The notes under the pieces: model-generated
The model's database searches: none
The model's input: only the letters and a program-made list of their open reading frames with translations
What the model was told of the DNA's origin: nothing
DNA from: Escherichia phage vB_EcoP-U8
Strand: one strand, 5' to 3'
DNA length: 40,294 bases
Sequence record: MT862763.1
Program-made: the position numbers and the translations under genes
In this document: piece after piece, positions 1,504 to 39,970 of the stretch
How the letters are laid out: every line of letters begins with the position of its first letter
How positions within the stretch are numbered: position 1 is the stretch's first letter

Positions 1504-1546
1504 TAATCATGAAGGCCACGACTTTGAGTCATGACCTTGAGTCTAA
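1504..1546 (-). promoter_or_regulatory. Conserved leader stem-loop element, copy A (candidate RNase III processing site, R1.1 position)
   Basis: Plus-strand TAATCATGAAGGCCAC...ATGACCTTGAGTCTA; RNA can pair AAGGUCAU with GUGGCCUU; same element at 10689..10726 and 34865..34905. Confidence 0.4.
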
Positions 1547-1566
1547 TCCTATAGTGATAGTTTAGG
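1544..1566 (-). promoter_or_regulatory. Phage RNA polymerase promoter (phi1.1 position)
   Basis: RC reads CTAAACTATCACTATAGGATTA; CACTATAGG core as in T7 promoters; upstream of gene 1.1. Confidence 0.75.
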
Positions 1567-1641
1567 GTTAACCTCTTCTGCGTTGGATTAAAGTGAATAC
1601 TGCGAGTGCTCCCAGCCACAGGGCCAGTAACTGTATGTCTG

Positions 1642-1857
1642 TCATTTGGCCTGCTCCAGCTTGGACACTGCGTCCTTCAGGTACTTCTCGTGGCTGGACT
1701 CGACCAGATATACAAGAGTCTTGAACGGGATGTTAAGCTGCTTGGACATCTCGGTAGGGATGACCGTGGTCTTCACCAGACCCTTGCCGTTGTGTTCTGT
1801 TACGGTCACGATTTGAGTCCCACCATTAACGCCAGTATGCTTGTGTGCAAATTTCAT
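1642..1857 (-). CDS. hypothetical protein (between gene 1 and 1.1)
   Basis: 71 aa ORF with SD AAGGAGAG upstream of ATG. Confidence 0.5.
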   Translation of the reverse strand: MKFAHKHTGVNGGTQIVTVTEHNGKGLVKTTVIPTEMSKQLNIPFKTLVYLVESSHEKYLKDAVSKLEQAK

Positions 1858-1867
1858 AACTCTCTCC

Positions 1868-2098
1868 TTATCTAATTAGAGGGAATGACGGATACTGAAT
1901 GCGCTCGTCTTCCATCCACGCGTTAAGAACTTCATCAATCGAAGCTATAAGGTTGTACTCGTTAGGTTGAATCCACCCAGTCACACCCGACTGTAATCTG
2001 TCTCGGAGAATGATTAAATCCTTATAAGTCAGCTCTACATGGCAACGTCCCGACCCATCGTTGAATACCCTGTTGTGTGCTACAAGTTTCATTGACAT
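1868..2098 (-). CDS. hypothetical protein (between gene 1 and 1.1)
   Basis: 76 aa ORF; SD AGGAG 6 nt upstream of ATG, immediately after RNAP stop. Confidence 0.5.
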   Translation of the reverse strand: MSMKLVAHNRVFNDGSGRCHVELTYKDLIILRDRLQSGVTGWIQPNEYNLIASIDEVLNAWMEDERIQYPSFPLIR

Positions 2099-2113
2099 AT
2101 ACTTCTCCTGTTG

Positions 2114-4795
2114 TTAAGCGAATGCAAAGTCTGAAGACAAGATGTCTTCGATATTCAGTTTACCTTTCTTCGGAAGCTCAGGCAACTTGTCTCTCTGGCT
2201 CTCGTGAAGCTGGTATTCAAACTGCTCGTAGAAGTCAAGCAGCACATCGTTGTCGCGGTAGGTCTCGACCATCGTCTCACGGACTCCACGGAACAGATAC
2301 TCAGCGTCAGCCGGGATGGTCCCGAAGCTATCGTGAATCACTGCGAATGACATCACGCCATATTTGCGGTGCGTGTGTACTACAGTCTTGCGGAGGTGGC
2401 TACCATCTTGTGAGTGGACGAAGTTCGGGCTAATGCCTGACTCCTGCTTGTGCTTGTCCAGCTCTTTCTTCGTGCCTTTGTTGACGGTAGGCTGAAGGTT
2501 GAATGACCCTAAGAACATCAGGTTCAGACGAGTGGTGTCCTTCTTGCGGTATTCCTGCCAGACAGGGAAACCATCAGGTGTGACCCAGTGTACCGGAAGA
2601 CAAGGCTTCAGGATTTCTCCAGTCTTCTTGTCCTTCACTTCAGCAGCAAGCAGCTTGGCAGCACCCTGAAGCCATTTCATCGCGTCAACCGCAGCAACTA
2701 CGGTCACACTCACAGCTTCCCAAATCATCTTAGCCATGAAGCGAGATGCTTGGCTTGGTTCAGTGAACATAGCGCCAGACCCTGAGTCAATCGCTGGCAT
2801 CACGATGTCCTCGTAAACTTGGTCTGCGAAGCCGTACTCTTTCGACCCGTAGGCCAGAGTCATGACCGAACGCTTAGTGACCTTTCGTGACATACCGTAG
2901 GTCAGCCACTGACGGGCAAGCTCTCGTGTCCCCAGCTTGAGACGCTCGGTAATCTCACCAGTTTTCTTGTCCTCGTGAGTTACCATCTCGTTGTCCGTAC
3001 CGTTAACCAGTAGGACTTTAAGCTCCTCCTCAATGCGGTCAGACACGATGCGGTAGATGTCTTGGACCTTACCGGATGGCGTCAGGTTTACTGCATGTCC
3101 ACCGATGTGGTCGCGAAGCATAGCGCTGAAGTGCTGAATCCCAGAGCAGGACCCATCGAACGCTATCGGCAGCGAGCAGGAGTAAGACAAGCCGTGGTGC
3201 ATTACGCCAGCATACTCGAAGCAGAACGCTAGGAAGCAGAACGGAGAGTCTAACTTGCCCCACCACTCAATGCTATCCATCGGTGCCTTGGCAGCAGCCA
3301 TGATGTTGTCGTGGTTATCTTCCACCCACTTGATACGCTCCTCGAAGGTGACTTTATCGACACCCGCGCAGTTTGCACCGTGGACCTTCAGCCATTTGAA
3401 ACCATCAGCACCAATAGGCTTACCGACTGCCAGAGTCAGAAGACCCTTTTGCATGTCGTTACCCTGAGGGTTGAACATCGGCACAGCGTAGACGCGACCG
3501 CGCCAGTCCATGTTATACGGGAACCAGATGGCCTTGAACTGAGAGAACTTGTTCGCTTGGTTGACGATAAAGCTCAGTGACAATCTTCGTGACTGTCTGG
3601 CCTTCTCGCGGCGATAGATACCAGCAGCAGCCTTCTTCCATGCCTTGAGTTCTTCTTCAGTCTCACCCGCATAGTCCTCAGGCTTCAGCGGTTCCATCTG
3701 AGGGATGTCATCAATAGGCGTGTTGTTCAGCTTCTCGACCATGTTCACCACTTCCAGAACCTTCTTGTTCACTTTCCAAGGTGTATTCTGAATGATGTTC
3801 ACAGCGTCATAGACTTCAGGCATATACACGTCTTCGTAGCGTGCTACCGCAGACTTAGACCCTAAGCGAATCAGTGGTAATGGTCTGCGTCCTTTGGCCC
3901 AGTACCCACCGCCTACGACACCAGTCCACGGCTTAGGTGGAACGACGCAAGGCTGGTAGACTGGAGCTATACCCGCAAGGCTGAATCCTCGTTGTGCCAT
4001 CTTCTTGACCCAGAAGTCTGACAGGTGGACCATCTCAACGTCAGCCGCTGCATTGCCAGCACCGTAACGCTTAAGCTCGACCAGTTGTGTGGACTGGATG
4101 ACAATCTCCAGCATCTTGATTCCAACGTGGACAGCCTCGGTCGGACTCCAAGTCCCCCACGCATCTTCCAGTTGGCCTTGCTCCAGCATGGATGCCTCGA
4201 CCGCTTGCATGTAGGCTTTCTTGTAGGACGCCCCGGCCCGCTTATTCAGGTTATCAGCTATCGCCTTCTTGAAGTGCTCTTTCTCCTTGTCACGGATGCG
4301 ACCGAAGCGGATTTCGTCCTCAAGTGTGCGACCTATCGCTGAGGCCATCGGTGTAATCGGTATCCCTTCAGGCTTGACCAGCTTGGAGAGTATGACCTTC
4401 AGTATGATAACCGCAGCAGACTCGCAGGAGATGCGCAAAGAGCGGACCTTTACGGCCTTCTCTTCAGTGCTCAACATGGTGAACGCTACGCTCGGACGAG
4501 AGGTTGACAGCTTCCCGTCTGGACCTTCATGCCACTCCTTGACGGCTTGCGCAATCTTAGGGACCAGAGTCTGCATCAAAGGCTTGGCGACCTGATTGTC
4601 TGCCAGTTCCCCTCGCTCAGTCTGTCTCTCAAGGTTCTTGATGAAACGTCGCTCGCCTTCAGTGTATGCCTCGTGCTCAAGCTGAAGCTGTTTGACTGCA
4701 AGGTCTTGCCCGTAGTGGTCAGCCAGTAGGTTAAACGGCTCAATGGCGTTCGACACATCAGAGAAGTCGTGCTTGTCAATAGAGATGACGCTCAT
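2114..4795 (-). CDS. Single-subunit DNA-directed RNA polymerase (T7 gene 1-like)
   Basis: 893 aa; collinear with T7 RNAP as recalled (MSVISIDKHDFSD..., ...ILSSDFAFA C-terminus, NMDWRGRVYAV, HDSFGT motifs). Confidence 0.97.
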   Translation of the reverse strand: MSVISIDKHDFSDVSNAIEPFNLLADHYGQDLAVKQLQLEHEAYTEGERRFIKNLERQTERGELADNQVAKPLMQTLVPKIAQAVKEWHEGPDGKLSTSRPSVAFTMLSTEEKAVKVRSLRISCESAAVIILKVILSKLVKPEGIPITPMASAIGRTLEDEIRFGRIRDKEKEHFKKAIADNLNKRAGASYKKAYMQAVEASMLEQGQLEDAWGTWSPTEAVHVGIKMLEIVIQSTQLVELKRYGAGNAAADVEMVHLSDFWVKKMAQRGFSLAGIAPVYQPCVVPPKPWTGVVGGGYWAKGRRPLPLIRLGSKSAVARYEDVYMPEVYDAVNIIQNTPWKVNKKVLEVVNMVEKLNNTPIDDIPQMEPLKPEDYAGETEEELKAWKKAAAGIYRREKARQSRRLSLSFIVNQANKFSQFKAIWFPYNMDWRGRVYAVPMFNPQGNDMQKGLLTLAVGKPIGADGFKWLKVHGANCAGVDKVTFEERIKWVEDNHDNIMAAAKAPMDSIEWWGKLDSPFCFLAFCFEYAGVMHHGLSYSCSLPIAFDGSCSGIQHFSAMLRDHIGGHAVNLTPSGKVQDIYRIVSDRIEEELKVLLVNGTDNEMVTHEDKKTGEITERLKLGTRELARQWLTYGMSRKVTKRSVMTLAYGSKEYGFADQVYEDIVMPAIDSGSGAMFTEPSQASRFMAKMIWEAVSVTVVAAVDAMKWLQGAAKLLAAEVKDKKTGEILKPCLPVHWVTPDGFPVWQEYRKKDTTRLNLMFLGSFNLQPTVNKGTKKELDKHKQESGISPNFVHSQDGSHLRKTVVHTHRKYGVMSFAVIHDSFGTIPADAEYLFRGVRETMVETYRDNDVLLDFYEQFEYQLHESQRDKLPELPKKGKLNIEDILSSDFAFA

Positions 4796-4864
4796 ACTTA
4801 AAGTCCTTGTTATTAGTCTTTCACTTAAAGTCTCTTTGGTCTTTCACTTGGAGTCTTAGACCTT

Positions 4865-4887
4865 GAGTCCTATAGTGATAGTTAAGT
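4865..4887 (-). promoter_or_regulatory. Phage RNA polymerase promoter directly upstream of the RNAP gene
   Basis: Plus strand CCTATAGTGATAGTTAAG at 4869..4886; +1 about 75 nt upstream of the RNAP start codon. Confidence 0.65.
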
Positions 4888-4892
4888 CAGAA

Positions 4893-5219: not shown

Positions 5220-5593
5220 TACAGTTTGCTCCCAAGTGTTGCTATATCCCAGACGTTCGCTAAGTTACGCATGAATCGTCCGTTAGGTTGACGTACAGTC
5301 CAGCTACCCAGACGTACATATTTGAATTTGTAGACTTTACGCGCTTTGTTGATGTCTCTCACCAGCACGTAGGCGATAAGTCCATAGCCTATGGCTATCA
5401 ATAGTGCGATACTCATAGTCATAAGCCCCATAACAGTTGAGTAAGGACCGGTAGTTTGCAGACTAGAGTAAACATTCCCCACGCTACGAAGCCTGAGATA
5501 GTCCAGATGATTGCAGTGCTCATAGTTAACTCCTATTAATTCAAGTGGTAATCTTTGAGGCCACCTATCAGTCGATGACCTCTCGTCTATCAC
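5219..5593 (-). CDS. hypothetical early protein with predicted transmembrane helix (start uncertain)
   Basis: 124 aa ORF; hydrophobic stretch MSIALLIAIGYGLIAYVLV; a 33-aa alternative-frame ORF with strong SD overlaps near 5430..5531. Confidence 0.3.
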   Translation of the reverse strand: MIDERSSTDRWPQRLPLELIGVNYEHCNHLDYLRLRSVGNVYSSLQTTGPYSTVMGLMTMSIALLIAIGYGLIAYVLVRDINKARKVYKFKYVRLGSWTVRQPNGRFMRNLANVWDIATLGSKL

Positions 5594-5636
5594 TCAGTAC
5601 CCGCCTGTCAGCGTTATGGTCAGGCTGTGATACACG

Positions 5637-5792: not shown

Positions 5793-6310
5793 CTTGATGA
5801 CCTCACCTCTTGCAGCTTGGACACAAGGAAGAAACAATCAACCAGTATCAACTTGCCATCCACAACCCGTACATTACGTGGGCTTATCTCAAACTGAATG
5901 TCTGACCCGAAGTTAGCGCAAGCGTCCAGCGCCATCATAACATCCATCAGGCCCTCCCGCACAGTCTCAGACTCAGACCTGTCGTGTGCATCTTGGAATA
6001 TCTCGTACCACTTGTGATACAGTTCGGCAGGTCGAGAGAATACCGGAGACCGTGAGAAGCAGTCTCGCAACACCTGATAGAGTTGCCATTGGTCATCGTC
6101 TAAATGCGCCTTGAGACCTCGTGTTGGTGGCATGTATTCCATCTCATATGTGCCTACCTCAATCATTTTGACTTCAGGGAACAGTGGAGACTCAGGGAAC
6201 CATCCCCACGCCATACACTCCTTGATTGGGTCTGAAGATACCAGAATCACACGCTTCCCGCAGTCCTTCAGGTAACACTTAGTGAATGCGCCTTTTCCGA
6301 TCAGTTTCAT
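5786..6310 (-). CDS. putative protein kinase, gp0.7-like but short (kinase domain only)
   Basis: 174 aa; N-terminal IGKGAFTKCY glycine-rich loop and VDGKLILVDCFF resemble T7 gp0.7 kinase region; SD AAAGGA 8 nt upstream. Confidence 0.45.
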   Translation of the reverse strand: MKLIGKGAFTKCYLKDCGKRVILVSSDPIKECMAWGWFPESPLFPEVKMIEVGTYEMEYMPPTRGLKAHLDDDQWQLYQVLRDCFSRSPVFSRPAELYHKWYEIFQDAHDRSESETVREGLMDVMMALDACANFGSDIQFEISPRNVRVVDGKLILVDCFFLVSKLQEVRSSRW

Positions 6311-7104: not shown

Positions 7105-7185
7105 TCTGACTGTAGGTAGCGGCATTACCGATGGTCGATGACTGTAGGTAGTTAGACTGTAAGTAGTTAGACTGTAGGTAGTGAC
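7105..7185. repeat. Short tandem/direct repeats (GACTGTAGGTAG x4, last three at 15-bp period) in genome-end region
   Basis: Copies at 7108, 7140, 7155 (one mismatch), 7170; lies between gene 19 and the early promoters, where T7 carries terminal-repeat and CCTAAAG-type repeats. Confidence 0.6.
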
Positions 7186-7618
7186 TCAAGGTCTGATACA
7201 GATAGAGACTCAAAGAAGACCAATAGTCCCTACCTATCGTCTTTCCCTAAGCCATAGCCACAACCTATCGTTGACCTGAAGTCTTGACCATCGGTCTAAC
7301 CTTATGATAGACTGGGGTAGGGCCTTTGGTCTGGACTAAAAGAGGGCCTATGGGGAGACTTGAGGTTCTTGAACTGTGAGATGTGGTCTCAAACTTTTGG
7401 TCCAAAACTCATCGTCACTACTGTAGACCACAGCCACTGTAGGTCAATGACCGTAGGTCAGGCGACACTAGGATAGACCAATAAGTAGGATGACCCTAAG
7501 TGAGCTTCTCTTAAGGTGTTACCTAAAGTCCTTGACTACAGTAGCTAAGGTCAGTAGAGTAGCGTCAGCTATGAACTGACCTTAGGTCTTGCTTTCGTTG
7601 ATTGTTACCATTACGGCG

Positions 7619-7957: not shown

Positions 7958-7980
7958 CTTCCCTATAGTGATAGTTAAGT
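7958..7980 (-). promoter_or_regulatory. Phage RNA polymerase promoter (phiOR position, after gene 19)
   Basis: Plus strand CCTATAGTGATAGTTAAG at 7962..7979. Confidence 0.7.
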
Positions 7981-10302: not shown

Positions 10303-10674
10303 TCAGAATCGACGTACAAGCGTCTTCTCTAGGTATGAAACAGCCCGCTGGACACTAGATGTAGTATCTCCCAGTGCGCCAATTGCTGCATTGCACTTGC
10401 GGCATAAAACCCCTCTAATCACCCCAGTGGAATGACAGTGGTCAATACACGCAGAGTCTGTATCTCCTTTCTTCCCACCTACTTTAAGCGGAGTCTTGCA
10501 AATCTCGCATGAGCTTCCCACCGAGTGCATCAGGTCCTCGAACTGTTCAAGCGTGAGACCATATAGGCTCTTTATCTGCGAAATGCGCTTAGTCCTCTTT
10601 CTTCGTTCCTCCCGTTCCTCTCGTAATTTACGAGCAGCTTGAACGTTAGCCTTTATAACATCTTCCGATACCAT
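10303..10674 (-). CDS. Endonuclease VII-family protein (putative homing endonuclease) between gene 18 and 18.5
   Basis: CEICK...IDHCHSTGVIRGVLCRKCN, the Cys/His pattern of T4 endo VII-type proteins; SD AGGAGGTGGT before ATG. Confidence 0.75.
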   Translation of the reverse strand: MVSEDVIKANVQAARKLREEREERRKRTKRISQIKSLYGLTLEQFEDLMHSVGSSCEICKTPLKVGGKKGDTDSACIDHCHSTGVIRGVLCRKCNAAIGALGDTTSSVQRAVSYLEKTLVRRF

Positions 10675-10688: not shown

Positions 10689-10726
10689 TTAATCATAAAG
10701 GCCACCAATAGATGACCTTGAGTCTA
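10689..10726 (-). promoter_or_regulatory. Conserved leader stem-loop element, copy B (candidate RNase III site, R18.5 position)
   Basis: TAATCATAAAGGCCAC-N-ATGACCTTGAGTCTA immediately upstream of the endo VII-like gene RBS. Confidence 0.4.
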
Positions 10727-11252: not shown

Positions 11253-14108
11253 TTAGCCCCTACCTCCACAACCTTCAAGTTTATCCAGTCGTGTTTCAAT
11301 CCTGTCGCAGCGACGTCGCTGATAAGCGGCCTCCAACCAGAAACACTGATCTGGACGAATGCCCCAGCGATTACCGGCAGCTCTAGTAAGTAGGGTATTA
11401 CCGGTTTCCACTTGACGGGTAACTTCGGTATCGACACCATCAATATTAACAGTGATAACCTCATCAACGAACTCAGGTTCATACTCATCTTCCCACTCGT
11501 CATAGCAAAGCAGACCGAAGGTAGTACCATCCAAACCATGCTTTATGAAGGTATCACGAACTTGCTGGGCAATTACCCCGAAATGCCAACGAGCAGAATC
11601 TTCACCTTTAGCCGCAATAGAAGATAACCACTTGTACGTGATTATCTGCACGTCGCCCCAGGCATCAAGGATATCATCCGAGATTTCAAACGGGTAAGTT
11701 TTTTCACGGGAGTCGGACGTATTAATAGTACCAATCGCTGCGAAGACTTGAGCCACACGTAATGCTGGGTTGCCTAAATTGTAAGCGTTATCTGTGTATG
11801 GACGTAGAGATGTATTATCTATACGCCATCGAATAGTGCCACCTACGGTTTCGGGCGACGGATTAGTAGCAAAACTAATAGACGTAGCACTCTTAAATAC
11901 CGACGATCCACCACCTAAGATAAGAGAATGTGCAGATGCGGAACTTTGTTGATCGAGGACAAGAATCTGTTCTGATTCGGTTAAAGTTTTATTACCGAAA
12001 GCCCTAGCTGCAATTCGACCTTGGGTTAATGCACCAGAGTCAGTATTATTCAGGGTTAAGCGATAAGTCTCTAAACCGATAGCCCCAGTAATTACGGTAT
12101 AACCGGAAGTGTCATAAGTTACACGCACAGTCTTACGGGTAGTTGGCCCAGTCTGATCTATAGAGAAGCTCTGATTATTCAGGTTGCTGATATGAAGCTC
12201 TATCCCAATTGGGTAGGCAACTCCATCCAGATCTGTAAGACCGGTGCTTGACGTATAGATAGTAACTGCCTTCTGCCCAGACAGCCGCATAAAGTCCAAT
12301 ACTGCTGACATTGAAGTCATGGCACTACCGGTCAGAGGGTTATAGAGTACGTCGCCTGCGAGGATTCGTGGATAAACCCCAGAAGCCATCCGAATGGTAT
12401 CGTAACCTGGAGATACCGTTGTCACCGCAGAAAAATCCAAGTCTGGGGAGTTGGAATACTCTTTGGTAATTAGGATCCCATGCGTATACGCATTCGAGGC
12501 GGTTCGGTTGTTATAGATCCATAAGGTGAACACCTCACCATTTGAATAGCAGATGCCCTCATTCTCTATACGAGAAGTCGTTAAGCCTTTAGCGTCCAGA
12601 ACACTAATAAAACCAGTAGGGGGCATTACTGCCTCCACCATTTTGTGCCCGTCAGTGCTGAATGCTTTTACTCCCTGATAATTAGTAGGTGCTTCCACAG
12701 TTGTTCCTGTAATGTAAACACCACCGAATGCCATAATCAGAACACCCGGAGCTAAACAGATTGCTTGTCGCTTAGTTTGAAGCGGCCCGTAATCAGTAGT
12801 AGTTGTCGTGATGTATCCAGCATCATACGGAGAAAATTCCGTGAAACCAGTTAATGCAAATGCGGAGTTGAAGTACGCAATAACATTACGTTGACGGTTA
12901 ATGCCCAACGCTGGGATGGCCTGTTCAACTGCCCACATTCCATTATGGAAGGAGAACTGGTTATACAGACCCACTTGGTGTAACGCTGTATAGCTAATCG
13001 TGGTGCCATAGGTCACTGCTGAGATATCAAACTCAGCTAAGTTACCATCGTAGGATCCAAGGAATAACTTAAGTGAACCATAGTAATTGGTTACGATAAT
13101 CCCCTCGGATACCGCAGAACCATTTACCCCTGTGCCTCCATTATTAGTCTGGAGATACCCTAAGTATTCACCTTCACCTGAGTAAACTACAACGAAACGT
13201 TCCGTAGCTGCGTTGTTACTTGGGCCATATGCAATGTAGATATTGCCATCATCCCCGATACAGAATGACCCCGGATAAATAAACGTCCAGTCAGGGTGCG
13301 CCGCCAGAATAGCATCGTAATCTGGGAATAGTAATGGCAGGTCAAAACTAATTTCTTTTTTATCTGCGCCAGAATTAGCCCAACGGCTGCTCAGGACTGT
13401 AGACAGTGTTTCCCCGTTTTTTGTGCCGATTAAATTTGTTCCGGTTGGTTTTGCAATATCGGCGCGCAATGACGCATCACCAACACTAACCCACGCACCC
13501 AAACCAACGCCGCCAGACGTTTCAGGAGTTGAACCAACAGGCACTGTTTTTGGCAGTCCACCATCCCAGCGGTAATACTCACCATCAGCTTCCCATAGCA
13601 GGACCTCGTTCCATGTTGTAATGTTGATGCCTTTCTCGAAGGAGCGACGGGTAATATAGCCGATTCGACCAGATGCCTGGATATTATCAGCGATTCGTCG
13701 TGCTTCGTCCTCGCTATCCTTAGCGTTGCCAGCAGAGCTACCAGCAGCATCTGCATATTCCTTCACTAAGTCAACCGTTTGGTCTCGACCTTCTTCTGCA
13801 ATATGGATAGCCTGAAGCTCTGAATTTGTCAGGTCACTAGCTGTCAACACTGAGCCATTCCTGAAATCTACCACTAAGTCAGTTCCAGTCTGACGGTGAA
13901 TACGAACTATGTCGAAACCTGATTGGTCAACCAACATCTCAATCATCGTTGGATTAAGGAATCGGTAATCTCGACCAACTTCCAGTACACGGTTCAGGGT
14001 AGGGTTAGAGCTATTCACCAGCGTAACAACAACAAACGTTCTGGATAGGTAGTCGAACTCAATCCTGTACTGAGTGTTTCCTGAAGGGAATTGTGTAATC
14101 GTGGACAT
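11253..14108 (-). CDS. Tail fiber/tailspike (gp17-like N-terminal adapter, divergent distal domain, C-terminal chaperone-like domain)
   Basis: 951 aa vs 553 in T7; first ~150 aa match T7 gp17 N-terminus (FVVVTL, LVVDFRNGSVL); C-terminus contains NTSDSREK...WHFGVIAQQV resembling intramolecular chaperone (peptidase S74-like) domains. Confidence 0.9.
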   Translation of the reverse strand: MSTITQFPSGNTQYRIEFDYLSRTFVVVTLVNSSNPTLNRVLEVGRDYRFLNPTMIEMLVDQSGFDIVRIHRQTGTDLVVDFRNGSVLTASDLTNSELQAIHIAEEGRDQTVDLVKEYADAAGSSAGNAKDSEDEARRIADNIQASGRIGYITRRSFEKGINITTWNEVLLWEADGEYYRWDGGLPKTVPVGSTPETSGGVGLGAWVSVGDASLRADIAKPTGTNLIGTKNGETLSTVLSSRWANSGADKKEISFDLPLLFPDYDAILAAHPDWTFIYPGSFCIGDDGNIYIAYGPSNNAATERFVVVYSGEGEYLGYLQTNNGGTGVNGSAVSEGIIVTNYYGSLKLFLGSYDGNLAEFDISAVTYGTTISYTALHQVGLYNQFSFHNGMWAVEQAIPALGINRQRNVIAYFNSAFALTGFTEFSPYDAGYITTTTTDYGPLQTKRQAICLAPGVLIMAFGGVYITGTTVEAPTNYQGVKAFSTDGHKMVEAVMPPTGFISVLDAKGLTTSRIENEGICYSNGEVFTLWIYNNRTASNAYTHGILITKEYSNSPDLDFSAVTTVSPGYDTIRMASGVYPRILAGDVLYNPLTGSAMTSMSAVLDFMRLSGQKAVTIYTSSTGLTDLDGVAYPIGIELHISNLNNQSFSIDQTGPTTRKTVRVTYDTSGYTVITGAIGLETYRLTLNNTDSGALTQGRIAARAFGNKTLTESEQILVLDQQSSASAHSLILGGGSSVFKSATSISFATNPSPETVGGTIRWRIDNTSLRPYTDNAYNLGNPALRVAQVFAAIGTINTSDSREKTYPFEISDDILDAWGDVQIITYKWLSSIAAKGEDSARWHFGVIAQQVRDTFIKHGLDGTTFGLLCYDEWEDEYEPEFVDEVITVNIDGVDTEVTRQVETGNTLLTRAAGNRWGIRPDQCFWLEAAYQRRRCDRIETRLDKLEGCGGRG

Positions 14109-14154: not shown

Positions 14155-14177
14155 GTTTCCTATAGTGATAGTTTAGT
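14155..14177 (-). promoter_or_regulatory. Phage RNA polymerase promoter (phi17 position)
   Basis: CCTATAGTGATAGTTTAG at 14159..14176; overlaps gene 16 stop codon; 50 nt upstream of gene 17 ATG. Confidence 0.75.
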
Positions 14178-17100: not shown

Positions 17101-18060
17101 GTATGTCAGAGGGTCCACGCCAGCACCAATAACACCAGCAGCTAACTGAGCGCCAGTCCCAGCCTTGGCCTTCTCTTGGTCCAACTTCTGGTTCTCAATC
17201 GCCAAGTTAATAAGCTCAGTCAGGTTCTGAGGGGAGCCACCAGTAATGACTCCGTAATACTGAGGCAGAACCCCAGCGTTACGAATCTGGTCCAGCTCCT
17301 CACGAGACCACTTATGGTTGTTCCATCGCGTCGGGTTGAACACATCGCCAATGACATCCAGTGAGTCCTCAGTCTGACCAGCTCTGATAGCCACGCCGAC
17401 CATAGAGTTCTTCACTTCAGCTTCTGTAGCCGCACCGAAACCGAACCACGTAGAGCGATCCTCTCGTTCCTGCATGGTCTCGCCAGTAGCCTTATAGAAC
17501 ATCTCACCGAACGATTCGTTGGGAGCTTCAGGTGCTTGACCCTCAATGTTCATACCAGCAGCGGTCGGAAGGTTCTCACCCAGAGCTACTTTAGGTTTAT
17601 CCTTGAGTCCTTCCGTGAGTGCGTCAAATACGTTAGCGCTTACTGGTGGAGTCTTTGGGCTAATGCCATTGAGTGCTCGTGCGACTCCCTTCTGATAGAC
17701 TTCAGGGTCGTACCGGGAGCCTGTCTCATGGAAGCTGATAGCTTGAGCCAGAGAAGACAGGGTGTCAGGGTCCGATAGGTCGAGACTCTGGGTCGCCGGG
17801 ATGCCCGTAGCCGAAGCCACTGACTGAATGTACGCCTGAGTGTCGTTCTCGTTCGGAGGTGCCCAACGGTTGATAATCTTCTCGATAGAGTCATAACCTT
17901 GGCGACCGTAGCTTTGAAGGTTTTTAGCTAAGGCTCGGACCCCAGATTCAGGACTATCGAAGATAACGAACGCACCATCATCACCTATAGCACCTTCCCA
18001 TTGGTCTTTGGACTTACGGAGGTTCCCGGGGTTTGAATTCCTTACTCCACGTGTCGCCAT
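14173..18060 (-). CDS. Internal virion protein D (gp16-like) with non-canonical N-terminal domain
   Basis: 1295 aa; long collinear match to T7 gp16 from about residue 250 onward (ENPAMFG, GTYVPHVY, AYNRRVNGDIAIMG); N-terminal ~120 aa does not match the T7 transglycosylase motif. Confidence 0.9.
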   Translation of the reverse strand: MATRGVRNSNPGNLRKSKDQWEGAIGDDGAFVIFDSPESGVRALAKNLQSYGRQGYDSIEKIINRWAPPNENDTQAYIQSVASATGIPATQSLDLSDPDTLSSLAQAISFHETGSRYDPEVYQKGVARALNGISPKTPPVSANVFDALTEGLKDKPKVALGENLPTAAGMNIEGQAPEAPNESFGEMFYKATGETMQEREDRSTWFGFGAATEAEVKNSMVGVAIRAGQTEDSLDVIGDVFNPTRWNNHKWSREELDQIRNAGVLPQYYGVITGGSPQNLTELINLAIENQKLDQEKAKAGTGAQLAAGVIGAGVDPLTYVPIAGQVGKGAKLVNKMFTVAAQSGALAGVSEMARTSVAGGDAHVAEAILGGALFGGGMTAIADGLGRALGRNTNEFAGPATRLEARETARNVDGQDLSRLPIQEGEQTFSHQGVKFADVPNEPGSVRLEDGSILIGENPLNPKTRQVFDEVIEPERAAAGVNLGGLTEIGLKLLRSENPEIRGVAADLVRSPTGMQSGASGKIGTTASDVFERLRSVDHRFYNDIDDAVTEALKDPYFQTAFWRDSGAFRQDIYQRVSMAIEDGSGNLKAELTPGELKVYDLLKNQFDAKREMMENPAMFGRPDAQSIFPGSRFKGTYVPHVYSKQMKELYIKELGSPEALQEAIKKSWLTSYASRPEVKKRVDEALLEADPTLTPEGLAAAVDKYANDKAYGISHTEQFERSSVMEENINGLVGLENNSFLEARNLFDSDMSIVLPNGQTFSVNNLREWDMDKIVPAYNRRVNGDIAIMAGTGKTTKDMKDLVETMMNKAGDDGKLKGEVSTLRDTLKILTGRARRDGADDAAFATVMRTMTDLSFFAKNAYMGVQNLTEIGGMLARGNVRALLHGVPMFRDLAFRNKKVGASEIKDLHNVIFGKELDDSIRPSKQDVIDRLRSYSDLGSGTATALGTAKYYTGELAVRSPFTKVLNGTTNYLLDAGRQGFLSDIVEHSLTGSKRKFDDRWLKTAGISDEQWKGIKSLIRESVTRGPDGKYTIKDKKAFSQDPRAMDLWRMGDTIADETLLRPHKLSNMDAKAYGPLAKTVLQFKNFVIKSINGRTMRTFYNATKNNRAIDAALSTVMSMGLAGIYYMAQAHVKAYAMQDGRDRDYLKQALDPTMIGYAALSRSSHLGGPLGVANILGGIAGYEDTKMLRSSILPRSPTEKPERAIAYGAATSDPVMNVVGNFLEQVPAFGYAANVGASAYNLAGYLKADTRVNERDYMTGMYNTFRELVPNDPITQKLLLGTFEEQGIHIKD

Positions 18061-18491
18061 GTCTTTCTCCTCAAGATATTTCTAATAGAAACCGTACTCA
18101 CTCCATAGCGTTCAGCCAAGAGTGAAACCTTTAGGTCGCTGGACCTTATATCACGCACACTTTCCTCAGTGAGCTTAGACGAGCCTACGAAGCATCCTAA
18201 CGCTTGGCGACCTCTAGTCACCTTATCCTTTATGTTATCAGCTTGGGTGCCAACTTCAAGGTGGCTTGGGTCTATACAGGACGGGTTGTCGCACTTATGG
18301 CGAACAACGTACCCATCCGGTATAGGACCGTTAGCAAGCTCGTAAGCAAGTCTATGCGCTCTGTATTTGACCCTGTTGACCATTATCCTTCCATATCCTT
18401 CTCCGTCTAAGTGGCCTGTAAATCGGATACAGCCAGACTCTTCAGCTACTGACAGTTCTGCCAGTCTCTCACTGGCTGTCCCGTTCTTCAT
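18042..18491 (-). CDS. HNH homing endonuclease-like protein between gene 15 and 16
   Basis: GYVVRHKCDNPSCIDPSHLEVGTQADN HNH motif; 149 aa; not present at this position in T7. Confidence 0.8.
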   Translation of the reverse strand: MKNGTASERLAELSVAEESGCIRFTGHLDGEGYGRIMVNRVKYRAHRLAYELANGPIPDGYVVRHKCDNPSCIDPSHLEVGTQADNIKDKVTRGRQALGCFVGSSKLTEESVRDIRSSDLKVSLLAERYGVSTVSIRNILRRKTWRHVE

Positions 18492-21378: not shown

Positions 21379-21765
21379 CTAATCCCCCTTCCGGCTTGTA
21401 GCCAGATAGTCAGCAGCCTTACCATCGAAATCTTCGCATTTAGAGTGGTAGTTTCTACGGGTCAGCTTTAGGTTGCAGGTATGACATAGGATTCCTCGGA
21501 CTTTCCCGGAGGTGTGACAGTGGTCAACGCATACTCCTCGGCTAGTTCCTAATGTCTTGCAGATTGCGCAGACCCCGCCCTGCTCTTTTAGGATGGAATC
21601 ATATTCTATCTGCGTAATGTGATACGTCTCGTATCCCTTGTTCTTGTGGCTCCGTCCATTATGACACAGCTTACAGGCAGAGCGTACACCACACTTAGAG
21701 TCTTTCCGTGTAGAGAACGCTTCTAGTGGCTTTTCAATTTTACAGACGGTACAGACCTTAGTCAC
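21379..21765 (-). CDS. Endonuclease VII-family protein (putative homing endonuclease) between gene 13 and 14
   Basis: GGVCAICK...[19 protein letters not shown]; GTG start with SD AAGGAGG; start overlaps gp13 stop. Confidence 0.78.
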
Positions 21766-22239: not shown

Positions 22240-22289
22240 AAGGGCCTATAGTCCCTATAGTGATAGTTAAGGTAAATCTATAGGCCCTT
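22240..22289. repeat. Perfect 12-bp inverted repeat (AAGGGCCTATAG / CTATAGGCCCTT) enclosing the phi13 promoter
   Basis: Arms at 22240..22251 and 22278..22289, 26-nt spacer containing promoter core. Confidence 0.8.
22250..22272 (-). promoter_or_regulatory. Phage RNA polymerase promoter (phi13 position)
   Basis: CCTATAGTGATAGTTAAG at 22254..22271. Confidence 0.75.
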
Positions 22290-24663: not shown

Positions 24664-24891
24664 TTAAATCATACTCATTAGGACGTATCCCTCAGCGATG
24701 TCACCAACGTCAGCAATGTGGACAACCTTACGTGCTACCTGTTGTCCAGTATACCCGTTGTCCCACTCATTCAGGATAAGCCAGTCGCCAACCTTAAAGT
24801 CCCGGTCGTTAAGTCTCAGCTCTGCTGTCTTTAGACCCAGTTGTACCGGACCAAAGTGCTGGCGGTGAATCTTCAGGTTGTGACTAGCCAT
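24664..24891 (-). CDS. DUF3850/ASCH-like small protein inserted between gene 11 and 12
   Basis: 75 aa; HNLKIHRQHFGPVQLGLKTAELRLNDRDFKVGDWLIL...GYVLMSM fits the DUF3850 (PUA-like) pattern as recalled; no gene at this position in T7. Confidence 0.6.
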   Translation of the reverse strand: MASHNLKIHRQHFGPVQLGLKTAELRLNDRDFKVGDWLILNEWDNGYTGQQVARKVVHIADVGDIAEGYVLMSMI

Positions 24892-25571: not shown

Positions 25572-25610
25572 GCAAAAAAACCCCTCAAGCACCCGAAGGC
25601 ACCCAAGGGG
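25572..25610 (-). terminator. Rho-independent terminator, T-phi equivalent after capsid gene
   Basis: RC: CCCCTTGGGTGCCTTCGGGTGCTTGAGGGG followed by TTTTTTTG; close to T7 T-phi as recalled. Confidence 0.85.
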
Positions 25611-25616
25611 TTTCAA

Positions 25617-26929: not shown

Positions 26930-27031
26930 ATGATAATTCTCCTATTCAATTGAAAGATAAAGTTTATTACTTACTGTATGCCCAATCCGTATGGACTGAA
27001 GTAATAGGGAAACCTTGAGTCTTTCTCTTGG

Positions 27032-27054
27032 TCTCCCTATAGTGATAGTTTAGT
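27032..27054 (-). promoter_or_regulatory. Phage RNA polymerase promoter (phi10), full consensus with GGGAGA start
   Basis: RC: CTAAACTATCACTATAGGGAGACC; transcript 5' end can form GGGAGACC...GGUUUCCC stem as in T7 phi10 leader. Confidence 0.85.
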
Positions 27055-28019: not shown

Positions 28020-28042
28020 TGTTCCTATAGTGATAGTTTAGG
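28020..28042 (-). promoter_or_regulatory. Phage RNA polymerase promoter (phi9 position)
   Basis: CCTATAGTGATAGTTTAGG at 28024..28042; overlaps portal stop codon. Confidence 0.75.
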
Positions 28043-29606
28043 CTTGAGCCATGTCCTCACCAGCTCCCTGACCTACAGCAGCACCCATGTTAGCACCAGC
28101 AGCACTAGCACCTTGGACAACTGCCTGTTGTGACGACTGCTCAGCCATGCGCTGAATCTTCTCGTCTTGCGTCAGGAGTAGGCCAGCGGTGTCGATACCC
28201 AGAGCGTTCAGGAGTCGCAGCTTAAGGGTCGGCAAATTGATGTCCGGGTCCTGAGATAGCGGCTGAAGACCAGTCATCATGTTAACCGCCTGAGTCAGCT
28301 TCTCCAAGTCCTGACCACGGCCCAGAGCTTCCAGACCAGTTGAGACAGTAGGCTCTACCGCTTCTTTCGGAAGGTCAGGAATCATGCCAGCAGACTGAAG
28401 TTGGTTCATCAGCACACGGACGATAGGTAACTGAAGCTCTTGTGACTGTACTGAGTACACGCCACCTAAGGTCGCCTCCAGTTCGCCAGCAACATAACGA
28501 ATCTCTTCAGCAGTGACACGCTCTGCATTACGCTGAACAGCACTATTAAGAAGGAAGGCCCAGCCTAAACGTTGCTCGATAGCGTCAGCCACCGACTTGG
28601 CAATCGTAAAGTCCTGACCTTTCGTCAGTTGCAGGAAGTTGATGTCCTCAACGCGACCAGCCACGAACTCACCTGTAGCCGCCTTGTTCAGACGACGAGG
28701 TTGCGTGATACCGTTCGGGTTAACGAGGCCCACCACCTTGGAGGCTACCTTAGCCATTTTGGTGATAGCTTCTGTAATCGTCTCCAGCGAGTTAAGGTCT
28801 CCCAGATACTCCTCGCAGTAAGAACGACCGTAGTCTTCACCGTCCAGTCGAACCATTCGTACCGGGATGTATGGACATGCGGTCAGAGGATATGAACCAT
28901 CGGTCCCTGTTACCTCAATTCCTTCCACTTCCTCGTAGCGCAGATACTCGTCGTCCTGACGGTAGATGTGCGTATACACTTCCAGCTCGGTGTCAGGCTC
29001 ATAGTCGTCTGCATTGAGTTGAGACTTCACGTCTTCCGGTAGAGCACTGAAAGCTACCTTGTCGAGAGTCACAATCTGCAAGATGTTACCGAACGCATCA
29101 CGTTGAACAACGTAAGACACTAAGCGGTACATCCGCATCGGACTGTAAGTACCCTGTTCAGGCTCTGGAATGTAAAGCAGACAGTTACCGGAGACGATAA
29201 GCTGCTTCAGAGCTTCGAACAATGGCACACGGAAACTGTTAGTCTCCATGTAGGCCATCAACACACGCTCGACCATAGCAAGCCCTTCGTCAACACGAGC
29301 AGCAGCCTCTGAGTCCTGACTCAAGGTCTTGGCCTCATATTCGGAGACTGTCAGTCGCATCCACGGTGACTGAGGGAATAACGCCAACATCAGCTTTGCA
29401 GCCAAGTTGTTCAAGCAGCGAGCACCTACAGCTTGCCACGGAGTGGTATATTCAGTAGACGAGTTGTCTGATTCCTTAGGAAACAGTGACGGGATAGTGA
29501 CAGCAGCACAGTTCTGTGCGCGGGTCTCGTAAGGCTGTCGTCCGTTCTTCAATCTATCATAAACTGACTTAGCGCCTTCAGCAGCGAACCCTTCACGTTC
29601 AGCCAT
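28038..29606 (-). CDS. Portal (head-tail connector) protein gp8-like
   Basis: 522 aa; matches T7 gp8 as recalled (YETRAQNCA, ACPYIPVRMVRLDGEDYGRSY, GLVNPNGITQPRRL). Confidence 0.96.
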   Translation of the reverse strand: MAEREGFAAEGAKSVYDRLKNGRQPYETRAQNCAAVTIPSLFPKESDNSSTEYTTPWQAVGARCLNNLAAKLMLALFPQSPWMRLTVSEYEAKTLSQDSEAAARVDEGLAMVERVLMAYMETNSFRVPLFEALKQLIVSGNCLLYIPEPEQGTYSPMRMYRLVSYVVQRDAFGNILQIVTLDKVAFSALPEDVKSQLNADDYEPDTELEVYTHIYRQDDEYLRYEEVEGIEVTGTDGSYPLTACPYIPVRMVRLDGEDYGRSYCEEYLGDLNSLETITEAITKMAKVASKVVGLVNPNGITQPRRLNKAATGEFVAGRVEDINFLQLTKGQDFTIAKSVADAIEQRLGWAFLLNSAVQRNAERVTAEEIRYVAGELEATLGGVYSVQSQELQLPIVRVLMNQLQSAGMIPDLPKEAVEPTVSTGLEALGRGQDLEKLTQAVNMMTGLQPLSQDPDINLPTLKLRLLNALGIDTAGLLLTQDEKIQRMAEQSSQQAVVQGASAAGANMGAAVGQGAGEDMAQA

Positions 29607-30797: not shown

Positions 30798-30858
30798 CTT
30801 GAATCTCCTCTTTAAGTTAAGACTAAAGTCTATCTTATAGTCATATCTTAGGTCCTAA

Positions 30859-30881
30859 AGTCCCTATAGTGATAGTTTAGT
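30859..30881 (-). promoter_or_regulatory. Phage RNA polymerase promoter (phi6.5 position)
   Basis: CCTATAGTGATAGTTTAG at 30863..30880. Confidence 0.75.
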
Positions 30882-35073: not shown

Positions 35074-36831
<1,758 letters not shown>

Positions 36832-36842
36832 TCACTCCTTAG

Positions 36843-36921: not shown

Positions 36922-36966
36922 ATTTCTTAATCTCAAATGCGAACAAAGGGACAAGACTCGTGGTCT

Positions 36967-36989
36967 CATCCCTAAGGTGATAGTTTAGC
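36967..36989 (-). promoter_or_regulatory. Variant phage promoter upstream of tRNA-like gene and gene 4
   Basis: CCTAAGGTGATAGTTTAG at 36971..36988 (RC CTAAACTATCACCTTAGG, two changes at -4/-3). Confidence 0.55.
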
Positions 36990-37197: not shown

Positions 37198-37211
37198 GTT
37201 AATTCTCCTTA

Positions 37212-37670
37212 TTAGCCTCGGTCGGAAGTGACCAGTTCGTTAGTGTTAAGCCAGCGCTGCAAGTCGAAACTTGGGCAAGCCTTTGGTGCTACATCGTGGT
37301 GAGCCTTGATTTCTGCCTGAGGATACAAGTCCTTCAGGTCAGCCAGCTTGTTGCGCAGGGAGTTCATCTGGGCTGGAGTGAAGTTAGCTTCAAACTTGCC
37401 CTTAGCGTCAATTCCACCTACAAGGCAGACGCCTACAGACCGTGAGTTCCAGTCCTTAACGTGTGACCCTACGACATTGACAGGGCGTCCCTCTTCCACA
37501 GTACCATCGCGCTTGATGATAAAGTGGTAGCCTACGTCCAGCCAGCCTTGCTGCTTGTGCCACATACGGATGGTCTCTACCCCGATGTCCATCTCTGGCT
37601 TGGTTGCGCTACAGTGAACGAAGATAGCGTCAGTCCGGGACCGTGGGTTGAACTGAACCTTACTCACCAT
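37212..37670 (-). CDS. N-acetylmuramoyl-L-alanine amidase / T7 lysozyme (gp3.5-like)
   Basis: 152 aa; AIFVHCSATKP, WLDVGYHFIIKRDGTVEEGR, PKACPSFDL match T7 lysozyme as recalled. Confidence 0.95.
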   Translation of the reverse strand: MVSKVQFNPRSRTDAIFVHCSATKPEMDIGVETIRMWHKQQGWLDVGYHFIIKRDGTVEEGRPVNVVGSHVKDWNSRSVGVCLVGGIDAKGKFEANFTPAQMNSLRNKLADLKDLYPQAEIKAHHDVAPKACPSFDLQRWLNTNELVTSDRG

Positions 37671-37887
37671 CGTACACCACCAGCTCTACAGCTACGAGGT
37701 TCAGATGACGTTGGAAGCGGTTAGCATCCGTGGTGTGCATCTGGAGCAACTTATGGTTGAAGACGTGAGAGTTACTAATCTTCACGTACACTTCACCCGG
37801 CTTACCGTGAACGATAAACGCATAGCCTACCGGGATTTTATCAATGGTCAGACGCTTACGAACGACCTTAACTTCTTGAGTCATCAC
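37660..37887 (-). CDS. hypothetical protein between gene 3 and 3.5
   Basis: 75 aa ORF tightly packed between endonuclease I and amidase. Confidence 0.45.
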   Translation of the reverse strand: MMTQEVKVVRKRLTIDKIPVGYAFIVHGKPGEVYVKISNSHVFNHKLLQMHTTDANRFQRHLNLVAVELVVYDGE

Positions 37888-38336
37888 TTAACTCCTTTCT
37901 TCTTGGGGATGAGTATACCTGAAGGCAGACGTACAGTCGCCTCTCGCAGCCACTCAACCGGGATGAACTTATCGGCATACTTATAGCCGTTCTTTTCGCA
38001 CCATGCGCCATACGTGGTCGGAGACCCTTTGTATAGCTTGGAGCGTGAACTTGAGAACACGAACCGGATGTCTAACTCTGGGTGCTGTTCTCGTACCAGA
38101 AGGTGCTTCTTACGGTCATCACTATCGAAGATACCTTTGGTCTCCACGATGATACCGTTGGGAAGGATAAAATCTGGTGTGTACTTGTGGTCGGAAGCCG
38201 GAATCACATAGTTGATATAATGGCTTTCGTACTCCGCTTTGACGCCGTTCTGTTCCAGCCACTGCTGGTTCTTGGCTTCAAGTCCAGAGCGGTAGGCACC
38301 CACAGAGTGCCCCCGTTTTGCAGACCATTGGGCCAT
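37884..38336 (-). CDS. Endonuclease I (gp3-like Holliday junction resolvase)
   Basis: 150 aa; YTPDFILPNGIIVETKG, DDRKKHLLVREQHPELDIRFVFSSS match T7 gp3 as recalled. Confidence 0.95.
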   Translation of the reverse strand: MAQWSAKRGHSVGAYRSGLEAKNQQWLEQNGVKAEYESHYINYVIPASDHKYTPDFILPNGIIVETKGIFDSDDRKKHLLVREQHPELDIRFVFSSSRSKLYKGSPTTYGAWCEKNGYKYADKFIPVEWLREATVRLPSGILIPKKKGVK

Positions 38337-39034
38337 TAGAAGTCGTAATCGCCACCAGGGTTGGAGTCGTCACCACCTTCGGAACCATCGTCACCGAAGT
38401 CATCACCACCGAAGTCACCAACGGTTGACGCTTTGTAGCCAGTACCAAGGTCTTCATCATCACCCCAGCCACCATCGCCACCAGCACCATCGCCTTTCCA
38501 CTCCTTCAGTTCTACCAGAAGGCAGGACTCAAGCTGGAGCTTAACGCTTGCACCAGTCGCAGCGTTCCACTTGAACGGCAGGACTTTAAACTTGACCTTC
38601 AGCTTAGACCCAGCGCAGATATTCGGGACGTCACGGATGAGTTTAGCATCGGTGTCGTAGAACCGTAATACGATAGGCTCGGACTTGCCGTCTTTCAGGT
38701 AAGACGCAAAGCATTTAAACTTAAGGGTAACAGTACCGTCACCATTCTCAATCCACGGCATGTCGCCTTCTCGTGGTTCAATAGGCTTCTTGCCACGCTG
38801 AACCTGAGGTGGGTTCTTCTCGTGGTCTGCGAGTGCTTTTGCATACGCATCGTCGTGAATCTTCTGTAAGACATCAATCATCTTACGGACCTTATGGTTG
38901 CTCAGGTCGAATGTCAGGTTAACCTTATGCTCACCACGCTCGTTAAACTTGGTGTCTGCTTTGTTCAGCCATGCGTAAGGCTCAACGATACCAGCTACCG
39001 GAGTGGTGAAAGTCTTCAGTTGCTCTTTAGCCAT
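38336..39034 (-). CDS. Single-stranded DNA-binding protein (gp2.5-like)
   Basis: 232 aa; matches T7 gp2.5 as recalled incl. acidic C-terminus ending DF. Confidence 0.95.
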   Translation of the reverse strand: MAKEQLKTFTTPVAGIVEPYAWLNKADTKFNERGEHKVNLTFDLSNHKVRKMIDVLQKIHDDAYAKALADHEKNPPQVQRGKKPIEPREGDMPWIENGDGTVTLKFKCFASYLKDGKSEPIVLRFYDTDAKLIRDVPNICAGSKLKVKFKVLPFKWNAATGASVKLQLESCLLVELKEWKGDGAGGDGGWGDDEDLGTGYKASTVGDFGGDDFGDDGSEGGDDSNPGGDYDF

Positions 39035-39074
39035 CGGTGTAAATCTCCTAATTTAAAAGTTACTAACTGGACGT

Positions 39075-39097
39075 CTGTCCTACAGTGATAGTTTAGG
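39075..39097 (-). promoter_or_regulatory. Phage promoter (phi2.5 position), one-base variant
   Basis: CCTACAGTGATAGTTTAG at 39079..39096; overlaps gp2 stop. Confidence 0.65.
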
Positions 39098-39251
39098 TCT
39101 CAGGGCGAATCCGTCCGACCACAAACCCAGCGTCCTCATACTCTTGGGACTTCAGGGTAGCCTCTTCAAGAGACTTTGCGTACAACGGAACCTCGAAGGA
39201 CTGAACGTGACCCTCAAGCTCCACGATGTATTTCTTTTCTTCAAGGCTCAT
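39093..39251 (-). CDS. gp2-like host RNA polymerase inhibitor
   Basis: [14 protein letters not shown]...[10 protein letters not shown] resembles T7 gp2; start set at Met with AGGAG SD (ORF track extends to 39314). Confidence 0.7.
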
Positions 39252-39329
39252 AGCCCTTTCTCCTTCCACATATGGTACATGGACAGGTAGTCCACATTCC
39301 CGGTTGAGACCCACTGTCTAAAACACCAA

Positions 39330-39668
39330 CTACTTGGAGTCATAGCACTTACCTTTGTGCAGGTCGAATAGCTCCTGATAGAAGGCTGCTTTGTTCAAGT
39401 CCTTCTCCATAGTAGCCATCTCGGACTTCTTACCAGCCCGGAGTCTATACTTCAGGACGTTACCCATGCAGAACCCACGGAACTCACTCACAGTCATTGA
39501 CCGTGCGATAATCTCAATGGATTCCACGCCATCAAAGACCTTATAGTGGGACGGCTTGCGGACGCCATCAATTTCTTGTAGTTTGTTACCTACAAGTTTA
39601 CCAACGTGCGGGAAGCGGTCGTCACCATTACATGCTTCACAGTATGTGGTGCTATCACAGTATGTCAT
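39330..39668 (-). CDS. gp1.7-like nucleotide kinase (short form)
   Basis: KPSHYKVFDGVESIEIIARSMTVSEFRGFCMGNVLKYRLRAGKKSE matches C-terminal part of T7 gp1.7 as recalled; 112 aa vs 196 in T7. Confidence 0.75.
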   Translation of the reverse strand: MTYCDSTTYCEACNGDDRFPHVGKLVGNKLQEIDGVRKPSHYKVFDGVESIEIIARSMTVSEFRGFCMGNVLKYRLRAGKKSEMATMEKDLNKAAFYQELFDLHKGKCYDSK

Positions 39669-39922
39669 CAGAGCGCCTCCTTAATTACCAGAAGTGCCAG
39701 CTTAATGCGAGGCCATTTTGTAATGACCACAGGCACATCAACTTGTTCTTTATCCATAGCCTTCAGCATAGACTTGCGGGTGACTAGCGCATGAACTGCT
39801 GGAGACAGAGCCACTGTCTTACCAAAGCGTGGTAATGGTTGATTAGCTTTATGGAAGCTGAATGGGCTATGCGACAGGTGGAAGCTTCGAGTAAATCGGT
39901 TGAACATTAAGTTTTTAGACAT
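39668..39922 (-). CDS. gp1.6-like protein
   Basis: 84 aa; weak resemblance to T7 gp1.6 and position. Confidence 0.45.
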   Translation of the reverse strand: MSKNLMFNRFTRSFHLSHSPFSFHKANQPLPRFGKTVALSPAVHALVTRKSMLKAMDKEQVDVPVVITKWPRIKLALLVIKEAL

Positions 39923-39947
39923 AAGGTTTCTCCTTTGGTCGGTTAGG

Positions 39948-39970
39948 GTTGTCCTATAGTGATAGCTTAG
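39948..39970 (-). promoter_or_regulatory. Phage promoter (phi1.5/1.6 position), one-base variant
   Basis: CCTATAGTGATAGCTTAGG at 39952..39970. Confidence 0.65.

Follow-up and report, generated by a model that had tools for sequence, protein, structure and literature searches.

The promoter set and the polymerase specificity class of coliphage K1F and the genus Kayfunavirus are already known, having been annotated in public records and characterised biochemically, and hold no novelty in themselves. Temme et al. (Nucleic Acids Res 2012, PMC3458549) found that a T7 RNA polymerase (RNAP) carrying the K1F specificity loop in place of T7 residues Q744-I761 activates a K1F-type promoter, obtained by exchanging positions -12 to -7 of the T7 promoter for the K1F subfamily consensus, with a 17-fold induction; this T7(K1F) enzyme was orthogonal with respect to T7, T3 and N4 promoters, and each RNAP was described as highly orthogonal to non-cognate promoters. 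Working in vitro with the purified RNAP of phage Ro45lw, Takatsuki et al. (J Biol Chem 2025, PMC12272871) defined the minimal promoter as ACTTAACTATCACTATAGGGA and mapped +1 to a G by 5'-end sequencing. A covariation study published in 2025 (PMC11880802) identified polymerase positions 748, 756 and 758 as the main specificity determinants, coupled position 756 to both -10 and -9 of the promoter, and assigned K1F to a cluster of its own on the basis of residues 748/756/758 and promoter positions -12 to -8. Finally, a 2026 genome paper on the Kayfunavirus Sparklingdew (PMC13298934) gives the consensus 5'-CTWAACTATCACTATAGG-3' and calls its sites promoters. Here we describe the same 18-mer in the DNA of Escherichia phage vB_EcoP-U8 (record MT862763.1; 40,294 nucleotides (nt), hereafter the window), where its eleven copies almost certainly represent the middle and late promoters for the phage's own T7-like RNAP, of K1F-type specificity, in a K1F-like genome.

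Eleven copies of one 18-mer

A motif search of the whole window with the pattern CCTATAGTGATAGTTWAG, up to three mismatches being allowed, returned 11 matches, all of them on the minus strand. The chance expectation in shuffled sequence was 0.07 matches, and no shuffle contained 11. The sites start at positions 1548, 4869, 7962, 14159, 22254, 27036, 28024, 30863, 36971, 39079 and 39953; eight match the pattern exactly, two carry one mismatch and one carries two. An earlier interpretation of this DNA made from the letters alone (the sequence-only reading) had proposed eleven copies of this element, a count that is borne out here together with ten of its start positions, the last one having been placed one base off, at 39952. 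A weight matrix derived from the 11 sites themselves and scored over both strands gave them 29.5-35.7 bits, with nothing further on the coding strand above 13.7 bits and a best score on the opposite strand of 7.7 bits. This wide gap indicates that the set is complete and sharply bounded, without hidden or intragenic copies. The sequence-only reading had suggested such a scan and had regarded a similar density of the motif in coding regions as evidence against itself; no copies were found inside genes. Two decayed promoter-like copies (1482-1508 and 30832-30851, minus strand) were also seen, both scoring far under the real promoters. One, CTAAATAAACACTACTGG, lies 65 base pairs (bp) downstream of the 1548 promoter, shares with it the upstream flank TTAACC, and brings to mind the tandem phi1.1A/1.1B of T7; the other, CTAAGATATGACTATAAGAT, scores 13.7 bits and follows the phi6.5-like promoter at a distance of 12 bp.

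Per-position counts showed the 18-mer to extend from -16 to +2 and to be nearly invariant over that length, with little information at -17 and past +4. Its -7 to +2 block, CACTATAGG, is identical to the T7 consensus, as had been claimed for the core; it is invariant in 8 of the 11 sites and carries one or two base changes in the remaining three. The conserved element is thus of the T7-group kind, about 20 bp long with CACTATAG as its core and G as the start base. Compared to the class II and class III promoters of T7 (TAATACGACTCACTATAGGGAGA), the architecture is the same and positions -8 to +2 are identical (TCACTATAGG), whereas the bases at -16, -15, -14, -12, -11, -10 and -9 are unlike: -12 to -9 reads ACTA in the window and CGAC in T7, with -8 and -7 as in T7. 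The divergence from T7 that the sequence-only reading had noted is therefore real, but the block spans -16 to -8 rather than -17 to -9, since the 18-mer itself runs from -16 to +2. At -12 to -8, ten sites carry ACTAT and one carries GCTAT, a variant also present in K1F, EcoDS1, LM33_P1 and Ro45lw. Neither the CGACT of T7 (Teseptimavirus) nor the ACCCT of T3 (Teetrevirus) nor the GGGCA or GGACA of K11 (Przondovirus) is found there, the T3 and K11 promoter sequences having been taken from their annotated records. The SP6 consensus, ATTTAGGTGACACTATAGAAG, differs from the window element too.

Placement was assessed against a rough gene model (90% coding). All 11 sites are co-oriented with the genes and stand at gene boundaries; seven are fully intergenic, and those at 14159, 28024, 36971 and 39079 overlap just the final 4 nt of the upstream gene, the TAA of C-TAA-AC being its stop codon. 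None reaches further into a gene. The orientation asserted earlier thus holds throughout, while the description of every site as intergenic holds for seven, the other four overlapping an upstream stop codon. By their neighbouring genes, 10 of the 11 sites match phi1.1, phi1.6, phi2.5, phi3.8, phi6.5, phi9, phi10, phi13, phi17 and phiOR of T7, so that the two phages have in common promoters before genes 1.1, 1.6, 2.5, 3.8/4, 6.5, 9, 10, 13 and 17 and at the right end, in keeping with the co-oriented, boundary-placed and syntenic promoters of the T7 group. Also shared with T7 are a promoter-internal TAA able to end the upstream gene, a Tphi terminator after gene 10 and weaker class II variants. 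The number of promoters differs (11 in the window, 17 in T7), with phiOL, phi1.3, phi4c, phi4.3 and phi4.7 of T7 lacking a counterpart in the window. The equivalence to T7 positions, which had been extended to all eleven, does not apply to the site at 4869, which has no counterpart in T7, T3 or K11.

The closest relatives carry the same set. In K1F the motif matches 11 times, junction for junction as in the window, and the three variants recur there (G at -12; G at -3; C at -4 with T at -3); LM33_P1 likewise has 11 sites at these junctions, with CACCGTAGG at the gene 4 site. EcoDS1 has 11 sites and one weak match and shares all three non-consensus variants; in its RefSeq record precisely the 11, among them the one that precedes gene 1, carry a phage promoter annotation, as 23-mers that equal those of the window down to +6 (the +3 to +6 bases match too). 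Ro45lw has 12 sites, the twelfth before the DNA polymerase gene, and a variant, CACTAAAGG, before gene 1; its record annotates six. Nothing of substance separates the promoters of these four phages from those of the window, and their polymerases are 95-99% identical to the one encoded here. A pattern scan of viral contigs with AACTATCACTATAGG yielded at least 120 stretches, mostly on contigs of 39-41 kb, a sign of wide distribution.

The phage RNA polymerase and its specificity loop

A T7-like single-subunit RNAP of 893 residues is encoded by gene 1 (2114-4795, minus strand), so that a polymerase of the T7 group resides in the same genome as the repeats. The protein is recognised by Pfam (RNA_pol, 1.5e-106; RPOL_N, 7.8e-15) and matches the T7 RNAP structures 1ARO and 1CEZ over its full length, with amino acid identities of 99% to K1F, 95% to Ro45lw, 64% to T7 and T3, and 60% to K11. 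At the DNA level, identity to Kayfunavirus LM33P1 reaches 99.9%, and coverage of the gene is at least 80% in more than 200 phage records.

The specificity loop YRKKDTTRLNLMFLGSFNLQPTVNKGTKKELD (residues 749-780, equivalent to T7 739-770; 2456-2551, minus strand) was compared in an alignment including T7, T3 and K11, in which the loop, TTRLNLMFLGSFNLQPTV, proved identical to that of K1F. Relative to T7, R756, N758 and Q768 are kept (R746, N748 and Q758 of T7), and the changes are R756N (N766 here), Q744T, Q754S and I761V, together with differences at 763-767. The residues at T7 positions 748, 756 and 758 are accordingly N, N and Q, the K1F combination, in place of the R756 of T7, the Asp at 748 of T3 and the Lys at 748 and 758 of K11, all read from the same alignment. 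That the polymerase would have its own recognition, as the sequence-only reading supposed, is well supported: the loop is unlike its T7, T3 and K11 equivalents, T7 R756 is replaced by Asn, and ACTA stands where T7 has CGAC. R756N fits the role of main specificity switch relative to T7, the contacts between residues and bases being those that we infer; the published coupling of position 756 to -10 and -9 (PMC11880802) is in line with such a role.

A second element of the enzyme points the same way. The counterpart of the AT-rich recognition loop of T7 (4490-4519, minus strand) reads DGKLSTSRPS, as compared to KAKRGKRPT at T7 93-101, and is much less basic. In structure 1CEZ the T7 loop contacts positions -17 to -13. 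The less basic loop would thus agree with the altered bases at -16 to -14.

Two published systems come close to reproducing this pair. The Ro45lw minimal promoter equals the CTTAAC-type sites of the window (4869, 7962 and 22254), and the enzyme that reads it, 95% identical to the one encoded here, differs by one substitution in the loop (M to L) and one just past it (T to S); that work was biochemistry on a synthetic template. The engineered T7(K1F)/PK1F pair agrees with the window system in its specificity loop and in the -12 to -7 block, the ACTAT block of PK1F being deduced from the text of PMC3458549 (the -12 to -7 replacement) and from our scan of K1F itself. It combines them with a T7 backbone and T7 promoter flanks, and thus has neither the CTW found naturally at -16 to -14 nor the different N-terminal AT-rich loop of the natural enzyme.

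What the repeats are likely to do

The sequence of the sites, their orientation, placement and conservation, and the identity of the loop are direct observations on the window. Gene-oriented sites at the phi junctions of T7, in DNA that also encodes a T7-like RNAP, uphold the interpretation of the repeats as phage-specific promoters. The EcoDS1 annotation, the published consensus and the biochemistry of Ro45lw and T7(K1F) place them in the known K1F/Kayfunavirus class, so that the earlier proposal was right without being new. Under this scheme, host RNAP would first transcribe the early region, gene 1 included. The gene 1 enzyme would then bind the promoters as duplex DNA from about -16 to -5, melt the TATA segment and start at the G that follows it. 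Specificity relative to T7 would lie at -12 to -9, read by the beta-hairpin specificity loop. Initiation at this G and orthogonality to T7-type promoters, which others demonstrated with near-identical enzymes, may be expected to extend to the window by analogy. The exact-consensus promoters would drive the structural genes, as in T7, and the three non-consensus ones would serve the class II region, a division into timing classes that is itself deduced rather than observed.

Two points weigh against this interpretation. The N748 of T7 is kept even though -11 and -10 differ from T7, so that the one-residue-one-base rule of T7 cannot be the full explanation of the specificity. Further, the start sites and relative strengths of the promoters in this genome would have to be taken over from its relatives.

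Were the repeats dispersed elements of a different nature (signals for recombination or packaging, say, or sites bound by a regulator), their mere repetition would be accounted for and nothing further; the single strict orientation, the positions at gene starts and the CACTATAGG core common to T7 promoters all argue otherwise, as does transcription of the same sequence in vitro by the 95%-identical polymerase (PMC12272871), and we regard this explanation as wholly improbable. Recognition of the sites by host sigma-70 RNAP has nothing in its favour and appears just as improbable, given that the 18-mer is without -35/-10 architecture, that the phage encodes its own polymerase, and that the host-type promoters of EcoDS1 are annotated elsewhere, in the early leader near the left genome end. 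A sigma-70 scan of the equivalent of this early leader in the window gave nothing better than weak 9-of-12 matches, and these did not exceed the level in shuffled sequence.

A role that would come in addition to promoter function, rather than as a substitute for it, is that some sites, above all those at 7962 (phiOR-like) and 1548 (phi1.1-like), act mainly in replication or concatemer processing, with transcription serving to prime or open the DNA and not to express genes. In T7, phi1.1A/B form the primary origin, and phiOR and phiOL lie near the genome ends. This analogy speaks for such a role, as do the primary origin annotated just after phi1.05 in the T3 record and the surroundings of the 7962 site, which is oriented towards the terminal repeat at about 7205-7381 and is followed by about 186 nt devoid of any convincing gene. 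Both sites are nevertheless exact consensus promoters that their sequence does not distinguish from the others, and we consider a mainly replicative function unlikely.

The promoter that precedes gene 1 deserves separate mention. Carrying CTTAACTATCACTATAGG (4869-4886, minus strand; +1 at 4870) and lying 75 nt upstream of the RNAP gene, it is the single departure from the T7 pattern, T7 and T3 being annotated only with host promoter C at this place and K11 with nothing. The site is found at 2475 in K1F and is annotated as 'phi' at 2244-2266 in EcoDS1; Ro45lw has its variant there. A consensus promoter directly before the polymerase gene would imply self-amplifying expression of the enzyme, and we tentatively suggest that, in K1F-like phages, it could make polymerase synthesis self-amplifying and the early-to-middle transition switch-like, a possibility that we hold somewhat short of probable. 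A similar autoregulatory arrangement was suggested for a T7-like vibriophage (PMC4099482). If the suggestion is true, just this physiological consequence would be new, the site itself being known.

Individual sites and genome context

Taken in K1F gene order, the next promoter after the one before gene 1 is CTAAACTATCACTATAGG at 1548-1565 (minus strand, as are all that follow; +1 at 1549), which comes after gene 1 and two small open reading frames (ORFs), corresponds to phi1.1A/B of T7 and is followed by an RNase III-type hairpin; it is found at 5553 in K1F and 6034-6056 in EcoDS1, and is annotated at 5483-5505 in Ro45lw. The phi1.6 equivalent, CTAAGCTATCACTATAGG at 39953-39970 (+1 at 39954), has G at -12 and the ligase gene upstream of it, with a TE-like terminator in between; this variant stands in the same place in K1F, EcoDS1 (annotated as phi1.6), LM33_P1 and Ro45lw. 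The phi2.5 equivalent, CTAAACTATCACTGTAGG at 39079-39096 (+1 at 39080), has G at -3 and ends gene 2 with its TAA; the variant is shared by K1F, EcoDS1 (phi2.5), LM33_P1 and Ro45lw. The phi3.8 equivalent, CTAAACTATCACCTTAGG at 36971-36988 (+1 at 36972), with C at -4 and T at -3, lies upstream of the primase/helicase gene 4 and supplies the stop of the small ORF before it; K1F and EcoDS1 share this variant, and LM33_P1 and Ro45lw carry close ones. All three non-consensus promoters thus fall in the DNA-metabolism (class II) region, those of the structural genes being exact consensus.

The late region would open with the consensus promoter at 30863-30880 (+1 at 30864), the equivalent of phi6.5 and presumptive first promoter of class III type. 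It is followed by the equivalents of phi9 at 28024-28041 (+1 at 28025; its TAA is the stop of portal gene 8), of phi10 at 27036-27053 (+1 at 27037), upstream of the major capsid gene and with a start region, GGGAGACC, identical to T7 class III promoters, of phi13 at 22254-22271 (+1 at 22255), and of phi17 at 14159-14176 (+1 at 14160), upstream of the tail-spike gene and supplying the stop of gene 16, all four being consensus promoters. The last one, again CTTAACTATCACTATAGG, at 7962-7979 (+1 at 7963), comes after the large terminase gene 19 and is equivalent to phiOR; it lies at 38853 in K1F, is annotated as phiOR at 38500-38522 in EcoDS1, and also occurs in LM33_P1 and Ro45lw.

Downstream of capsid gene 10, a Tphi-type terminator hairpin (25577-25614, minus strand; 17-bp stem and T run) aligns with Tphi of T7 and with the terminator annotated in EcoDS1, and is predicted to end or attenuate the phi6.5, phi9 and phi10 transcripts. 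A 12-bp hairpin with a T-rich tail (39999-40026, minus strand) separates the phi1.6-like promoter from the ligase region, at the place of the early terminator TE annotated in EcoDS1. A second motif, GACTCAAGGTC, is over-represented in the window, with 16 matches at up to one mismatch as compared to 1.2 expected; examples are found at 1533-1543, 4859-4869, 10714-10724 and 27011-27021 on the minus strand and at 7183-7193 and 29318-29328 on the plus strand. At 1500-1545 and 10690-10725 it supplies the 5' arm of stable hairpins, which read AAGGUC...GGCCUU followed by AUGAUUAAC (z-scores of -2.7 and -2.0) and which resemble the RNase III processing sites of T7 at the R1.1 and R18.5 positions. Several other copies, those on the plus strand included, are without an obvious hairpin.

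The long ORFs of the window all lie on the minus strand. Over its whole length the window best matches Kayfunavirus isolates, at 92-97% identity and as a mosaic of various isolates, and the K1F proteins map onto it in a full T7-like gene order that is the same as in K1F. Judged from these matches, it is a K1F-like coliphage genome (genus Kayfunavirus, subfamily Studiervirinae), given as the reverse complement and circularly permuted. The K1F ends fall at 7381 (left) and 7205 (right) of the window, which therefore contains a single, collapsed copy of the direct terminal repeat of about 177 bp; a terminal duplication was sought in the window and none was found. The predicted true genome ends are at 7205-7381, between the phiOR-like promoter and the early genes. 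Both ends of the window fall within the DNA ligase gene (gene 1.3, minus strand), about 300 N-terminal residues of which run from 982 down to about 1 and about 28 C-terminal residues from 40293 to 40210 in a different frame (window 1-982 and 40210-40294). About 20 nt are presumably missing at this junction, judging by the C-terminus of the T7 ligase. Because the ligase gene is split over the window ends, the contig would seem to be an assembly, circular or derived from a concatemer, that was opened at an arbitrary place, without physical genome ends.

Three small free-standing nuclease ORFs (18042-18491, 21379-21765 and 10303-10674, all minus strand) look like mobile inserts of the homing type, a kind common in T7-like phages: an HNH endonuclease ORF (PF13392, 2.9e-17) is an insertion that separates genes 15 and 16, direct neighbours in K1F, and each of two ORFs of the endonuclease VII family (PF02945) occupies a gene junction, 13/14 in one case and 18/18.5 in the other. 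A 75-residue ORF with a DUF3850/ASCH domain (24664-24891, minus strand; 1.9e-19) sits between tail genes 11 and 12, a place at which K1F lacks it; EcoDS1 annotates it as 'RNA-binding protein'. The tail-spike gene 17 (11253-14108, minus strand; 951 residues) is 88% identical to the K1F endosialidase over about 226 N-terminal residues and 41% identical in the C-terminal chaperone domain (Peptidase_S74). Since the central receptor-binding part differs, the capsule or O-antigen specificity of the phage is probably not K1.

The significance of these findings is small beyond correct annotation, the K1F-type polymerase-promoter pair being already a published tool in synthetic biology, among the orthogonal T7 variants, and for in vitro transcription. 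For this phage, the repeats now have an explanation, the polymerase has been identified along with its specificity loop, and the genome is assigned to a known genus.

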